Below are positions 607-44,615 of a stretch of DNA of 64,000 nt, one piece after another. A program made the translations under genes and the position numbers. The DNA comes from a virus: IMG/VR virus record IMGVR_UViG_3300028859_000011, positions 32,001 through 96,000 of that record, one strand, 5' to 3'. Under the pieces are notes generated by a model. That model saw nothing but the letters and a program-made list of their open reading frames with translations, was not told the origin of the DNA and searched no databases. Numbering within the stretch: position 1 is the stretch's first letter; each line of letters opens with the position of its first letter.

Positions 607-3141
607 ATGAATTACTCAAAAGAAGTAGAAGAAGTTATCAAATTAAGCAAGGAAATTGCTATTAATATTCGTTCTAAGTCTATTAAACCTGAACATTTAT
701 TTTTGGCAATGATTGATGACGATCATTCTGAAACATCTGAAATATTGAGGGATTTAAATCTCAATATTGGCGCAATTAAGCAAACAATTCGTGAGTTGTC
801 TACATCTGAACAACCTGGAATAAATACACTTAGAAAGAATGCATCAATTCCAATTGACTCATCAACTGAAAAAATTCTTACAGATTCTGCTATTTTAGCT
901 AAAAAAATGGGAACAGATGAAGTTAGTGTAGAACATGTTTTATGTGCTATATTAGAAAATAAAAATAATTTAGTATCAGAATTATTTAGTAAATCTCCTG
1001 ATATTTTAAGGAGTCTAATGATGATTTTGAAAAATGAGGATCATCTTGATGAATACAATAATGAAATTAATGAACGAGATATAGAAGATTATCAAGATGA
1101 GTCTAACATTAAAGATGATACTAAAAATAAATCAAAAACTAAATTGATTGATCAGTTTGGTACTAATCTTACCAATCTTGCAAAAGAAGGTAAATTAGAT
1201 CCAGTAGTTGGACGTGCAGATGAAATTAAAAGAATTTCGCAGATATTATCCAGACGTAAGAAAAATAATCCTGTATTAGTAGGTGAACCAGGTGTAGGTA
1301 AATCTGCGATTGTTGAAGGATTAGCTCAATTAATTGTAGATGGACTTGTTCCTGAAAATTTACAAAATAAAAAGGTTATAACTCTTGATATGGGGTCTTT
1401 GGTAGCAGGAACTAAATATCGTGGTGAATTTGAACAAAGATTAAGAGGTATTGTCAAAGAAATGGAAGAAAATACTGATATTATTTTATTCATTGATGAA
1501 ATTCATACTATTATTGGAGCAGGTTCTGCAGCAGGATCACTTGATGCTTCTAATATGTTGAAACCAGGATTAGCCAGAGGAACATTTAGATGTATTGGCG
1601 CTACTACTCTTGAAGAATATAGAAAGTATATTGAAAAAGATGCAGCATTAGAACGTAGATTTCAAAAAGTTGTAATTGATGCAACTAGTAAATCTGAAAC
1701 ATTAGAAATTCTTAAGAATATCAAAAAACAATATGAAAATCATCATAAAGTTACATATACTGATGATGCATTAGAAGCATGTGTTAATTTATCTGATAAA
1801 TATATATCAGATAAATTCTTTCCAGACAAAGCAATTGATGTTCTTGATGAAGCTGGAGCTATGGTTCATGTTAATGGAACAAGTGCAATTCCAGATAAAA
1901 TTGTAGAACTCAGTAAAAAAATAAAAATTTCTATTTCTGAAAAACTTGAAAGTATTGCAGCACAGAAATTTGAGAAAGCTGCTGTTCATAGAGACAATGA
2001 AAAACAATGGAAATCTGAACTTGAATCAGAAAGAGAAATATGGAGTCAGGAACATACTGATCATAGAGATGTAGTAACTCAAAAAGAAATAGCTGAAGTT
2101 GTTGCCCTAATGACAAAAATACCTGTAGATAATGTATCCGTTGATGAAAATAACAAGTTAAAATTTATGGCGGATAAAGTAAAAACTGTTGTTATTGGAC
2201 AAGATGATGCTGTTGATAAAATAGTTCAATCAGTTAAAAGGGCAAGAGTTGGTATTACTAATCATAGTAAGCCTGTTGGGTCTTTTGTTTTCTCTGGACC
2301 TACTGGAGTAGGTAAAACATATCTTGCAAAAATTATGGCAAAGGAGTTATTTGGATCAGAAGATGCAATGATTAGAATTGATATGAGTGAATTTATGGAA
2401 AAATTCTCTGTATCTAGATTAGTAGGAGCACCTCCAGGCTATGTTGGATATGAAGAAGGTGGTAAATTAACAGAAGCAGTAAGACGTAAACCATATTCTA
2501 TTATTCTTCTTGATGAAATGGAAAAAGCTCATCCAGATGTTCAAAATATACTTCTTCAAGTATTAGATGATGGTGTATTAACTGATAGTAATGGTCGTAA
2601 AGTAGATTTTAAAAATACTATTATAGTTATGACAACAAATGCAGGTTCAAGAAAATTGAAAGATTTTGGTGCTGGAATTGGATTTGGACTTAATAAAAAC
2701 AGTCAGCAATCTAAAAATGATGTTCTTAAAAAAGAATTAGAAAAAGTATTTAGTCCTGAATTTTTAAATCGTATTGATGAAATTATAAATTTCAATTCTT
2801 TAAGTAAAGAAAATATTTGTGGCATTATTGATGTTGAATGTAAATCTTTGATATCTAATCTTAAAGAAAAAGGATATGATATAATTATATCTCAATCACT
2901 TAAAGATTACTTATTTGAAAATGGTTATGATGAAAATTATGGAGCAAGGCCATTAAAACGAGCAATTCAAAGTAATATCGAAGATAAACTCGCTGATGCT
3001 ATTATTGATCAAGAAATCTCAGTTGGTGATAAAATATCATTAATATATGATAAAGAAAGTTCATCTGTTAAAATTTCAAAATTGTCAACTAAAGAGATTA
3101 AGGCTAGTAATATCTTAACAGAAAATACTACAGTTTCTTAA
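607..3141 (+). CDS. clpC: ATP-dependent Clp protease ATPase subunit, ClpC type
   Basis: Clp N-domain repeats, two Walker A motifs ([16 protein letters not shown]), UVR-like middle coil, ClpP-docking IGF loop (GAGIGFG). Confidence 0.95.
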
Positions 3142-3446
3142 TGATTAAATGGAAAGATTTAAATCTCACTGATAAAATATTCTATGTTATCTTAAATAAA
3201 GATAACATAGATGTTTTACTTAATAATGAGATGAAAATAGAAGAGATTAAAATAATTAGTATTATTAATGATAATAAAAATATATTATTTAATACTGATA
3301 TATTTGGAAACATTGAAATGACATATGATGAATATAATGAAGAAAGTTATGTCACCTCATATTTAAATGATTCTCTTATAATATTTTCAGTCGATCATAA
3401 TGGAATTATAACTGAATTGAAAAAATTATTAAATGATTTAAATTAA
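3141..3446 (+). CDS. Hypothetical protein
   Basis: ORF overlapping the clpC stop (TAATG), followed by a terminator. Confidence 0.6.
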   Translation: MIKWKDLNLTDKIFYVILNKDNIDVLLNNEMKIEEIKIISIINDNKNILFNTDIFGNIEMTYDEYNEESYVTSYLNDSLIIFSVDHNGIITELKKLLNDLN

Positions 3447-3459
3447 CAATTTAAATATT

Positions 3460-3488
3460 AAAACCCTCTGATTTTCAGAGGGTTTTTT
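3460..3488 (+). terminator. Intrinsic terminator
   Basis: AAAACCCTCTGA-TTT-TCAGAGGGTTTT hairpin with T tract. Confidence 0.85.
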
Positions 3489-3550
3489 ATTTGTAAAATT
3501 GATTACTGTTTTTTTATATATAATATTGTTAAAAAATAAAATTATAAATT

Positions 3551-4657
3551 ATGCCAGAGCAACAATATAAAATACATTTTCAAAGAAAATTTAAAACATA
3601 TGAAAAACATAATGACTTTTATAATAAATTATTAGACTTAGATATACAACATTTATTTGAGGTTTTACACAAATTAAGATTACCAAATGGTTTTTATAAA
3701 GCATCAGTTTCTACTGATTATAGGTACAGTTGGTTAAGAGATAATTTCTTTTGTTCATTTCCAGAATTATGGAACGATACAGAAAAATATATTCAAACAT
3801 ATCAAACATGGTTAGATTATTATAAAAATATAGAAACAAAATATGGAAAATTTTCATCTTTAATTAAAAAGAAAAAAATAGATTTTGATTGGGAATTTCC
3901 TAATCCAAGAATAAATACAGATTTGACAGAAATTCATTCTGGATGGAATCATATTCAAATTGATCAAATAGGATATTTTTTATATGGAATATCAACTGGT
4001 GAAAATAATGGATTGAATATAATTCGTGATAAATCTGATATTGATATTATATCAACAGTAATTAATTTACTAGATGCTATTAATTATCACACAGTACCTG
4101 AATCTGGAGCTTGGGAAGAGGGTAAAGAAGCTCCAAGGGCATCTACAATTGGTGTAATAGTGGCTGGCTTAAAATCAATTAAAATGTGTAATAACATTAA
4201 TATAGAAATTCCTGTTCATCTGATCGAAAATGGTATTAAAACTTTAAATAGTATTTTACCAAATGAAACCCCCACCAGAAAATATGATTTAGCACAATTA
4301 TTTCTTATTTATCCATTTAATTTATTAACTATTGAAATGTCTAAAACAATATTAAAAAATATTGAAGATAATTTATTAGATGATAATGGAGTCTATAGAT
4401 ATCTAGATGATAAATATTATAATCACAATGGAGAAGCAACTTGGTTATTTGGATTAAGTTATTTAGGATTAATATATTGTCAATTAGGAGATAAAGAAAA
4501 AGCAAAATATTTTTATGAAAAAATAGTTGATGAATCCATAGATTATGAAATACCTGAATTGTATTATCACGGTACAAAAACTCCAAATGATAATAATCCA
4601 TTAAGTTGGAGCATAGCAATGACTATTGAATTAGCACATATGCTTAAAACTAATTAG
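3551..4657 (+). CDS. Glycoside hydrolase family 15 / phosphorylase-kinase-regulatory-like (alpha/alpha)6 protein
   Basis: Y.YSWLRD, QID..G, ESGAWEE, G..RY..D.Y and C-terminal IPELY...PLSWS motifs typical of the GH15-like fold. Confidence 0.7.
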   Translation: MPEQQYKIHFQRKFKTYEKHNDFYNKLLDLDIQHLFEVLHKLRLPNGFYKASVSTDYRYSWLRDNFFCSFPELWNDTEKYIQTYQTWLDYYKNIETKYGKFSSLIKKKKIDFDWEFPNPRINTDLTEIHSGWNHIQIDQIGYFLYGISTGENNGLNIIRDKSDIDIISTVINLLDAINYHTVPESGAWEEGKEAPRASTIGVIVAGLKSIKMCNNINIEIPVHLIENGIKTLNSILPNETPTRKYDLAQLFLIYPFNLLTIEMSKTILKNIEDNLLDDNGVYRYLDDKYYNHNGEATWLFGLSYLGLIYCQLGDKEKAKYFYEKIVDESIDYEIPELYYHGTKTPNDNNPLSWSIAMTIELAHMLKTN

Positions 4658-15067: not shown

Positions 15068-15862
15068 TTATTCTAAACGAATATTATATATTTCTTCTTT
15101 AATGTAGTTACAATTTGTTTTGTAATAATAACCATCAATTGTTATACAATTTTTATTCCTACCATTTGATATAATTATAATATCGTATGAATAATTATAA
15201 TTAATCTTTTTCTCATTATATAAAACTAAATAGTGTGTATCAAATTTTAATATTCCTGCAGATTCAAATATAACATCATCTAATGTTCTTTTTTGTGATG
15301 AAAATGGCTTTACTTGAACTGTATATTTTTCATTATCAAACATAAATGATCCATCTATTCCACTAACATCTTCTGCTATATTTATTGGAGGATTAAATTT
15401 AATTATTTTTTTAGTTTTATTATTATTATTAATAAAATTTTGAAAATATATATTTGCTAAATTTTCACCACGCTTACCTTTATTAGATGTACATTCGACG
15501 ATATGATAATTACCAATAAAAAATACTCCATTATAATGATATTGATTAAATAAATTATATTTCATATATTTAATAAAAGATTCTTCAGTTCTTATATCAT
15601 TAAATTTTGCTATACTCTCAAATGTTCTTTTATTATTAATAAATTTATTTATAATTTCCATTTCATAACTTTTTTTATTTATTTCAAATTTATCTTTATT
15701 ATTATTTTTTATATAACCAAATTTTGAATATACTCTTTGAATAAAATTTTCAATTTTATCATTTATTTTTGATTTTTCTTTTGATGAAATTTCAACATTA
15801 ACTTCTTCATTATCATCATCATACCATTTCAATATTGTTGGTTTATTATTATTTTCACTCAT
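15068..15862 (-). CDS. Putative PD-(D/E)XK-type nuclease-fold protein
   Basis: E(RGENLA)...GIDG.....YTVQVKP motif arrangement. Confidence 0.45.
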   Translation of the reverse strand: MSENNNKPTILKWYDDDNEEVNVEISSKEKSKINDKIENFIQRVYSKFGYIKNNNKDKFEINKKSYEMEIINKFINNKRTFESIAKFNDIRTEESFIKYMKYNLFNQYHYNGVFFIGNYHIVECTSNKGKRGENLANIYFQNFINNNNKTKKIIKFNPPINIAEDVSGIDGSFMFDNEKYTVQVKPFSSQKRTLDDVIFESAGILKFDTHYLVLYNEKKINYNYSYDIIIISNGRNKNCITIDGYYYKTNCNYIKEEIYNIRLE

Positions 15863-15925: not shown

Positions 15926-15955
15926 AAAAAAAAGTGAAACAACCTAATGTTTCAC
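15926..15955 (-). terminator. Intrinsic terminator downstream of ncRNA candidate E1
   Basis: Minus strand GTGAAAC-ATTAGGTT-GTTTCAC followed by T7. Confidence 0.75.
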
Positions 15956-15981
15956 CTCCTTTTTTTGTTAAATTTAAAAAT

Positions 15982-16053
15982 AGAGAGATAGCTTCCACAC
16001 ACCAAATGTAATTTTATTGATTAATTCGTCAGGACCTTAACCCGAATCTCTCT
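15982..16053 (-). ncRNA. Candidate small structured RNA E1 (unclassified)
   Basis: 8-bp closing stem AGAGAGAT/ATCTCTCT, GC-enriched, bracketed by terminators; shares motifs with E2. Confidence 0.5.
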
Positions 16054-16067
16054 TATATTATAAATAC

Positions 16068-16106
16068 AAAAACCTAGCAAACTTTAAAAAAAAGTCTCAC
16101 TAGGTT
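16068..16106 (-). terminator. Intrinsic terminator upstream of E1
   Basis: AACCTAG...CTAGGTT stem with T tract on the minus strand. Confidence 0.6.
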
Positions 16107-16203
16107 GTAAATATTTAATATCTTTTAATATCAGTTTTTTACTCATAATTATATACCTTATATATAAATATATTTATATCTATTTTATCTAAAACTAAAA
16201 ATT

Positions 16204-16755
16204 TTATTTACATAAACGATCTGAAGCAGAACTTGAAGCAAAACTATATGGTTTTCCCATTACTTTATATTTTTCACCGCATAACCATCCCATAACATCA
16301 TTATAAACTTTATTTGATTTATTGTTTGATAATCTTGCTCCATTTCTTGTATTTTTTTTAACATTTAAATCTACATGAATTTCTACTAGCTTATTTGGTG
16401 TTGAATCATCATAATAGTTTTTATCAAATTTATATTTATAATTATTATTACTTAATGTTTCGTTAATAGATTCAGCAACATCATGAGACAATAATGCTTC
16501 ATTCCATAATTTAGTTACAAGGTCTTTAACTTTAGGCTCAGTATATGTTGCATAAACTACATGAGCACCTTTTCTTTTTTCCTCATTATAAAAAACAACT
16601 GAAACTGCATATTTAGTTCTATGCATATGACTATCTGAATCACAACCAATAATTACTTTTGATCCTTTATCAACATTTTTAACATAATTTAATACGTAAT
16701 CATTTATACTTATAATTTTTTCTCCATTTATTTTTCTCCATGCTAAATTTTCCAT
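16204..16755 (-). CDS. RNase H-like YkuK family protein
   Basis: VIIGCDS...E...S....EIHVDLN...G...KP.S..AS..SD motifs. Confidence 0.75.
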   Translation of the reverse strand: MENLAWRKINGEKIISINDYVLNYVKNVDKGSKVIIGCDSDSHMHRTKYAVSVVFYNEEKRKGAHVVYATYTEPKVKDLVTKLWNEALLSHDVAESINETLSNNNYKYKFDKNYYDDSTPNKLVEIHVDLNVKKNTRNGARLSNNKSNKVYNDVMGWLCGEKYKVMGKPYSFASSSASDRLCK

Positions 16756-34178: not shown

Positions 34179-34481
34179 ATGGGTTGGGGAACAGATTTTA
34201 CAGCAAATGTATATCTTAATAGAATGTCTTTTGAGGCTATTGAAGATGTAAGAAATAAAATTGATGAGAATATTAATGTTATTAATGATGCAAAGCAAAA
34301 AATAAAAATGTTTGTATCTTCTACTCCTATTGGTATTATACCAGATGAATGGAAAGAAGAGCCAATTAATTGGCTAAATTCAGAAATTGATATTTTATTT
34401 GAAATAATAGATGAATCAATTAAAGAAAATGTAATACTATATCAATATGTTAAATATTTAGAAAATAAATCTAGTTTATAA
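34179..34481 (+). CDS. Hypothetical protein
   Basis: MGWGT... ORF after the duplicated promoter. Confidence 0.6.
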   Translation: MGWGTDFTANVYLNRMSFEAIEDVRNKIDENINVINDAKQKIKMFVSSTPIGIIPDEWKEEPINWLNSEIDILFEIIDESIKENVILYQYVKYLENKSSL

Positions 34482-34559
34482 TAAGAAGTCTGCCGATTCA
34501 GGTTAAGATATACATATTTGGAGGGTGCACCCCCGCTATCAGAGATAGAAGACTACTTA
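34482..34559 (+). ncRNA. Candidate small structured RNA E2 (unclassified)
   Basis: TAAG-A-AGTC/GACT-A-CTTA closing stem, GGG-TGCA-CCC hairpin, motifs shared with E1. Confidence 0.5.
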
Positions 34560-34618
34560 TTATAAACTTATTATAAACTTATTGTTTTTCTTTTAGTATA
34601 TAAGAAAAAATTAAATTT

Positions 34619-44161: not shown

Positions 44162-44247
44162 GCTCTGGTGGTGAAACTGGCGAAACACGATACTTTTAAA
44201 AAGTATTACATTAAGAAACAATGCGGGTCCGAATCCCGCTCAGAGTA
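44162..44247 (+). tRNA. tRNA-Leu(TAA)
   Basis: Acceptor GCTCTGG/TCAGAGT, anticodon arm ATACT-TTTAAAA-AGTAT, long variable arm, A73, no encoded CCA. Confidence 0.85.
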
Positions 44248-44255
44248 CAAAAAAT

Positions 44256-44338
44256 GTTCCTGTGATGAAATTGGTAGTACATAAATTTCTTAAAAGAATT
44301 TGCCCACTGGCGTGTCGGTTCGAGTCCGACCAGGAATA
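44256..44338 (+). tRNA. tRNA-Leu(TAA), second divergent copy
   Basis: GTTCCTG/CAGGAAT, loop CTTAAAA, variable stem GCC/GGC, GGTTCGAGTCC T arm. Confidence 0.9.
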
Positions 44339-44349
44339 CAATAAAACAT

Positions 44350-44435
44350 GCTGATGTGGCGGAATGAATACGCGGCAGTCTAAGAAACTGTTTCTGAACA
44401 AAGTAAGAATGTGGGTTCAAGTCCCACCATCAGTA
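44350..44435 (+). tRNA. tRNA-Leu(AAG)
   Basis: GCTGATG/CATCAGT, anticodon arm GCAGT-CTAAGAA-ACTGT, long variable arm. Confidence 0.85.
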
Positions 44436-44442
44436 CAATAAT

Positions 44443-44516
44443 GACTGAGTGATGTAATTGGTAACCATGTCATCCTCAAAAGGTGAATTTTGTGGGTTCG
44501 ACTCCCATCTCAGTTA
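44443..44516 (+). tRNA. tRNA with CAA anticodon (Leu) and short variable region
   Basis: GACTGAG/CTCAGTT, TCATC-CTCAAAA-GGTGA, 5-nt variable loop ATTTT. Confidence 0.8.
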
Positions 44517-44524
44517 CAATACAT

Positions 44525-44614
44525 GTTCCAGTGGCGAAACTTGGTTGAGACGCGTTAGATTTAGGATCTAATACAGTTAATGACACACTGCGGGTCCAAA
44601 TCCCGCCTGGAATA
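44525..44614 (+). tRNA. tRNA-Leu(TAG)
   Basis: GTTCCAG/CTGGAAT, TTAGA-TTTAGGA-TCTAA, long variable arm. Confidence 0.88.
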
Positions 44615-44615
44615 C

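Follow-up and report, generated by a model that had tools for sequence, protein, structure and literature searches.

A 72-nt element on the minus strand of a viral DNA (E1, positions 15982-16053 of the 64,000-nt stretch analysed here, referred to as the window) is, as judged from its sequence and those of its relatives, one member of a conserved, hitherto unnamed family of structured small RNAs carried by AT-rich huge phages that were sampled in peat and lakes. That E1 is a real, conserved and stand-alone structured RNA is very probable. The window corresponds to positions 32001-96000 of an IMG/VR virus record that has a length of 125.5 kb and 22% GC and for which CheckV estimates a completeness of 18%; the record is therefore a fragment of a huge phage. 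Near-identical DNA is present in peat, freshwater and soil metagenomes. An earlier sequence-only reading had described E1, reported that its motifs recur at a second site (E2, 34495-34540, plus strand), and proposed on that basis a novel family of phage non-coding RNAs with a conserved core and variable stems. This account was borne out in part. The description of the E1 sequence stands, but a recurrence at E2 beyond chance does not; similarly, the proposal of a novel family holds for E1, with its 15 homologues, but the basis given for it, a motif common to E1 and E2, does not.

The relatives of E1 are found in other phages. Contigs reached via close relatives of the YkuK-like protein encoded upstream of E1 carry an orthologue about 85% identical to E1 in the same position. 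Further diverged copies were retrieved by pattern scans of IMG/VR and of JGI metagenomes, and additional loci by a profile of the YkuK-like protein (alignment A2); the RNA was present at every locus obtained with this profile. The family comprises at least 15 distinct variants on related phage contigs of 22-30% GC, among them records of 501 kb and 235 kb, with an RNA length of approximately 75-110 nt and a core of 72-78 nt. The copy in the window has the features that define the family: P1 and P2 helices with compensatory changes, the GUGUG..RAAGCU strand and a site downstream of the YkuK-like gene. Strong copies of the E1 type occur once per record. Weaker model matches in the 501-kb record (G004) were rejected as chance, one lying inside what on reading is an evident ORF and the other being AT-rich and devoid of P2. 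The first pattern scan of IMG/VR, for a 13-mer together with ATTTGG, was also discarded, its six matches all being chance occurrences in coding sequence of unrelated contigs. A search of 185,579 prokaryote species, one genome per species, with the exact family pattern turned up just two matches, both by chance in coding DNA. The 2-kb region had no blastn match among cultured and GenBank phages, and the 264-aa protein encoded downstream retrieved no relatives when used as a search anchor.

With the family covariance model (R1), the E1 core, from the 5' to the 3' strand of helix P1, scores 85 bits (E about 5e-21) and aligns with 14 other variants. The motifs listed in the sequence-only reading are found on the minus strand in the order that it gave (16053-15982), with GATTCGGGTTAAG at 16036-16048, and the closing stem of 8 bp that it described is helix P1, in which the 5' strand AGAGAGAT (16046-16053) pairs with the 3' strand ATCTCTCT (15982-15989). 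Across the family, P1 has 7-8 bp and shows double-sided changes at seven of eight pairs. Joined directly to it, with no unpaired base on the 5' strand, is P2 (16029-16045), a T-arm-like hairpin of 5 bp that reads UCGGG - UUAAGGU - CCUGA in the window and has the family consensus UCRGG, a 7-nt loop YURANGU, and CCYGR; its cells are 100% paired in the 15 variants, and its middle pair is G-C, A-U or G.U. P1 and P2 thus make up a continuous 12-bp helix that is capped by the 7-nt loop. A linker and a variable AU-rich hairpin, P3, follow (16008-16028; UAAU/AUUA in the window, by eye). In most variants P3 begins 1-5 nt past P2 and has stems of 4-8 bp that differ in sequence (by eye), and the hairpin is missing in members L035 and L070. 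The 3' part of the core is a single strand, J3/1 (15990-16003, GGUGUGUGGAAGCU), which is near-invariant (columns 57-70 of the 15-row alignment A3) and has the consensus (G)GUGUG(U)GRAAGCU, after which the 3' strand of P1 begins; RNAalifold adds a weak 3-bp helix of GGU with GCU within this invariant strand. Nine or more members have in addition an outer 8-bp stem, P0 (GAUGGUGA/UCACCAUC). The spacer between P0 and P1 is 0-15 nt long 5' of the core and 1-2 nt long 3' of it; P0 is absent from the window, L022, L035, L070 and L076. Two further readings of the core were tried and rejected by eye. A pairing of AGAUUC with GAAGCU and an extended small P4 helix are both lost in L071, L075 and L076, and a hammerhead reading of CUGACGA in the window places its U at a paired, covarying P2 position that is C in other members.

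The evidence for this structure comes from covariation. The search for homologues and covariation that the sequence-only reading had proposed yielded 15 E1 variants with compensatory changes, and the covariance model of the E1 family did not report E2. In A3, 93% of the cells pair, and double-sided changes are seen at 8 of 13 pairs; none of 500 shuffles reached any of the five measures, and sliding the partners by 1-3 columns left 42-58% of the cells paired. The outer stem P0 pairs at 97% in its nine members, with one double-sided and two one-sided changes. The structure-blind alignment A1, made with MAFFT only, gave the same covariation picture, RNAalifold recovered P1 and P2 unaided, and single-sequence folds of several members reproduced P0 to P3. 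It should be noted that E1 alone folds no better than its shuffles (z = -1.0), and hence its structure is shown by the relatives and not by energy. The pair table of A3 contains approximately 20 G.U cells versus four A.C cells, the latter arising from a 1-nt deletion in two rows. This excess shows that the functional strand is the minus strand of the window, the one on which E1 had been placed from the start, and that the element acts as RNA rather than as DNA.

No known class was recognised in E1 by the sequence-only reading, and scans against Rfam 15 agree with it, as no family matched. At the gathering thresholds only five tRNAs pass in the whole window. At E <= 10, the core from P1 to P1' yields only psm_mec, with 18 bits against a gathering threshold of 85; at E <= 1, six other members of the E1 family gave nothing on the element, and the E2 site gave no match either.

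Three motifs, GATTCAGGTTAAG ... ATTTGG ... GCTATC, are indeed found at E2 in the same order as in E1, and they had suggested a single RNA family with the core GATTCRGGTTAAG / ATTTGG / GCTATC and variable stems. In favour of such a family, both sites are co-oriented with their neighbouring genes and enclosed by stems, and two of the motifs are infrequent, with GGTTAAG occurring only 5 times and GCTATC only 14 times on both strands of the 125-kb record. However, when model R1 was run over the whole window with filters off, E2 was not listed at E <= 10, and the family profile HMM found only a 12-nt stretch of E2 (E = 33, ranked fourth). A composition-aware alignment of E1 against the 125.5-kb record placed E2 3rd to 13th among the non-self windows, with a score that lay below all 16 maxima of random Markov sequences, very cheap gaps included. 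Moreover, E2 has neither the 3' arm of P2 (CCYGR) nor the GUGUG..AAGCU strand, and ATTTGG, taken at first for a conserved motif, is not conserved among the true orthologues, the nearest relative of E1 reading ATTAGG. Finally, E2 has no counterpart elsewhere in IMG/VR and lies exactly where homology with related phages breaks off. A common family of E1 and E2 is therefore very improbable.

Instead, the best reading of E2 is that of a palindrome that occurred once, either inserted or left as a scar at a deletion junction. Homology to the relatives (90.6% at the nucleotide level to L084) ends at about 34487, just past the stop of a 100-aa ORF, after which the relatives continue into genes of approximately 240 and 175 aa, and a close relative (G001), in which E2 is missing, has about 1.8 kb in place of window positions 34181-34569. 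The palindrome (34482-34568, plus strand) folds strongly (z = -4.4), and its two arms of 17 nt (34475-34491 and 34550-34566) duplicate in inverted form the promoter-proximal CTTATTATAAA located after E2, a sequence that is itself tandemly duplicated. The GC-rich core of E2 had no match in the record or in IMG/VR, and a MITE was rejected because no second copy of the arms or the core was found in either. Thus, the true relatives of E1 are the orthologues in other phages, E2 is not its paralogue, and a false lead is removed.

The surroundings of E1 are also largely as first described. No ORF of at least 30 aa overlaps the element. Upstream of it, a terminator-like hairpin (16068-16106, minus strand; -16.9 kcal/mol, z = -5.5) with a U run after it ends the transcript of the YkuK-like gene, and downstream, an intrinsic terminator (15926-15963, minus strand) begins 19 nt past P1, is called by the terminator scan (two sites versus 0.1 expected), is seen in the fold and is conserved in L022. 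A TATAAT hexamer, on sequence reading a -10-like box, is located 3 nt ahead of P1 (16057-16062, minus strand), and in four members (the window, L022, L035 and L070), which also have separate terminator hairpins both before and after the element, an A/T hexamer (TATAAT, TATATA or TATTTA) precedes P1 by 3-7 nt. A promoter role of the hexamer would be an inference from its position; a sigma-70 scan called no promoter on the strand of E1, and in a genome of 22% GC TATAAT is a consensus look-alike. In three metatranscriptome runs, the only contigs lay on the two flanking genes, at a depth of 2-4, a result that speaks neither for nor against a transcript of E1.

Several smaller observations were made on these flanks. 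A terminator of the type AACCTA(G/A)...(C/T)TAGGTT plus a T run precedes the RNA gene in the window (16068-16106), L035, L070, L022 and L051, and this type is also found elsewhere in the same phages of the clade. A 20-codon ORF (MSKKLILKDIKYLQPSETFF, 16085-16144, minus strand) overlaps the upstream terminator but is unlikely to be a gene; an ATG stands at the corresponding position of L022 and opens a different peptide. The 5' arm of the downstream terminator contains a perfect Shine-Dalgarno-like AGGAGGTGA (15944-15952, minus strand); with GAAGGTGGA in the nearest relative, L022, the likeness is lost, and it is thus probably a coincidence.

In the window, the order of promoter-like box, element, terminator and gene, all on one strand, could be that of a riboswitch or attenuator leader, which would act via the terminator at 15926-15963 on the downstream gene for the 264-aa protein (15068-15862). 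However, at least 8 other members carry their downstream gene on the strand opposite to the RNA, the family of this gene varies among members, no alternative anti-terminator pairing was seen by eye, and Rfam contains no riboswitch that matches, all of which makes this explanation most improbable. The RNA itself was found downstream of the YkuK-like gene and on the same strand at every locus tested, at a distance of 130 to 1,500 nt, whereas the families of the downstream neighbours differ and there is no conservation of the far flank. At L048, L050, L051, L052, L054, L055, L056, L059 and L075, the following gene runs towards the RNA. These facts rule out a leader or riboswitch for a downstream gene and favour a free-standing RNA; the stand-alone reading fits the context. 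At these same loci, arrays of convergent small genes lie just 3' of the RNA. Their products start with MITNFK(I/L)FE or MKYIK and end with K(F/Y)N(L/I)-stop, the stop being approximately 10 nt from the 3' strand of P0, and the KFNL-stop end of the convergent gene accounts for the conserved bases just past P0.

In most members the RNA closes a transcription unit and lies between two convergent genes, as would also be expected of a cis-acting 3'-end element, that is, a terminator working in both directions or a structure for stabilisation or processing, that closes the transcript of the YkuK-like gene and the convergent transcript and has no function as a free RNA. P0 and P1 together make a long stem that would suit such an element, and in L076, which has no P0, a U-rich run follows immediately after P1. 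Nevertheless, terminators need neither a near-invariant single strand of 14 nt nor a conserved heptaloop, both of which E1 has, and separate terminator hairpins flank the element on both sides in the window, L022, L035 and L070. E1 is thus not an intrinsic terminator alone, and a purely cis-acting role of any of these kinds appears unlikely.

The constant upstream neighbour of the RNA is a gene for a YkuK/DUF458 (PF04308) RNase H-like protein (16204-16755, minus strand; Pfam E = 3.4e-21). Across the clade, the protein has 53-81% identity and the invariant residues D39, E86, E95, D129 and D179 (alignment A2). Its AF2 model (pLDDT 80) is nearest to RNase H1, with 3u3g and 4e19 as the best PDB matches, and its structural neighbours include RNase H1 complexes with RNA/DNA hybrids. 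The gap between this gene and the RNA is a hot spot for mobile genes. It contains ORFs resembling GIY-YIG homing endonucleases in four lineages (L051, L054, L055 and L075), other ORFs in L059 and L071, and in L076 a 387-aa ORF (3057-4220, minus strand) that starts with MLKSFKYRIYPT and presumably encodes a TnpB-like protein of the IS605 OrfB family.

RNase H cuts RNA II of ColE1, and on this model the RNA might serve the adjacent RNase H1-fold nuclease as partner, substrate or primer, for instance if its G/U-rich strand were cut within an RNA:DNA hybrid or if it were the subunit of a ribonucleoprotein. The constant order of the two on the same strand, in spite of the insertions of homing-endonuclease and TnpB genes and of the changed far flank, is consistent with such a partnership, as are the invariant acidic residues and the closeness of the protein model to RNase H1, including its RNA/DNA-hybrid complexes. 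However, the phages that carry the family are all related and largely syntenic, and the linkage may therefore be plain ancestry; within one clade, adjacency is not separable from shared descent. Distant YkuK homologues in huge phages of 480-735 kb (LR7565xx and LR745206) have no RNA nearby. The GC skew does not turn at E1, the divergent gene layout expected of an origin is absent, and the site lies between convergent genes in many members; the idea that E1 is a replication origin was rejected for want of a skew turn. A functional partnership of this kind is accordingly regarded as rather unlikely.

The helical part of E1 resembles the acceptor/T-arm minihelix of tRNA and of viral tRNA-like structures: a stem of 7-8 bp stacks on a second one of 5 bp, 12 bp in total, that ends in a 7-nt loop. 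The core of 72-78 nt is comparable in size to a tRNA. Model R1 cross-matches the T arm of one of the phage's tRNAs (44401-44476; its position is also given as 44350-44435), and this T arm differs by a single base from the commonest P2 of the family, GGGUUGAAGUCCC. The T-loop pattern consists of five nucleotides, U-N-N-R-A, with U1 and A5, and is closed by a G-C pair. Counted to this pattern, 13 of the 15 loops read UUGAA, UUAAA or CUAAA and are closed by G-C, those of the window (UUAAG) and L022 (UUAAU) falling outside it. Yet E1 is no tRNA: ARAGORN and RF00005 made no call on it, the only tRNAs being the five at 44162-44615. It does not form a cloverleaf and has one T-arm-like hairpin in place of the D, anticodon and T arms; position 3 of its loop is a purine where tRNA has C56; no CCA is encoded after P1; and its extra domains are on the 3' side of the minihelix, whereas those of tRNA are on the 5' side. 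The five adjacent tRNA genes (44162-44615, plus strand) are all assigned to Leu by ARAGORN (UAA, UAA, AAG, CAA and UAG), and the one with the CAA anticodon (44443-44517) is short, at 75 nt, and is missing the long variable arm that a tRNA-Leu should have.

The explanation that we prefer is that E1 is a single-copy structured RNA gene with its own transcript, whose product acts in trans and binds a protein by imitating a tRNA minihelix; taken as a whole, the chances for and against it seem about evenly balanced. The context suggests that the RNA would be made on its own, from the -10-like box before P1 to the terminator 19 nt past P1, as a transcript of roughly 125 nt in the window, and that it would act in trans rather than on a neighbouring gene. 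The invariant strand and the P2 loop have no complementary target of at least 9 nt in the 125-kb record, and therefore a protein or a tertiary contact is likelier for the invariant strand than pairing with an mRNA. As a guess, the RNA might be bound by a tRNA-recognising enzyme of the host or the phage or by the RNase H-like YkuK protein encoded upstream. That it is a mimic of the tRNA minihelix which binds a tRNA-recognising or RNase H-like protein is a tentative proposal, possible but on balance improbable. A more specific version, which we consider unlikely, is that of a "mirror-wired" minihelix, with the body attached to the other strand, that would serve as a decoy or recruiter for tRNA-recognising proteins; candidate targets are tRNA-cleaving defence nucleases of the host, RNase P, CCA-adding or T-arm-modifying enzymes, and the YkuK protein. 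If true, such a minihelix would be a new kind of RNA-based tool for takeover or counter-defence.

Some known RNAs invite comparison. YrlA, the Y RNA-like RNA of bacteria and phages, contains a tRNA-like module with a T-arm-like element and occurs in some phages. It shares with E1 the T-arm-like element and a non-coding nature; however, E1 has no Rfam match, and no Ro-binding stem was seen in it. RNAC and RNAD of T4 are, by description, likewise small stable phage RNAs, and their biological roles are unknown (PMC3014915). They derive from the tRNA gene region, whereas E1 is approximately 28 kb away from the tRNA array and beside the YkuK-like gene. Structured RNA candidates have been compiled from IMG/VR by Fremin et al. 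2023, including 8,495 unnamed ones from DNA viruses, some of which are tRNA-like (PMC10690425). They come from the same database as E1 and are based on the same kind of evidence, intergenic covariation, and the E1 motif could be among those 8,495 candidates; a named description of the motif was not found.

Among the small RNAs of lytic phages, few have been assigned a role, and even RNAC and RNAD of T4 are still unexplained (PMC3014915). Being compact and covarying, with one copy per genome, an invariant strand and a tRNA-like helix, E1 is a testable candidate for an RNA that acts on the tRNA or RNA machinery of the host. It has stayed beside the YkuK-like gene through several insertions of mobile genes. 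It may also offer the first clue to the function of the YkuK/DUF458 family, which is uncharacterised (PMC3985635).
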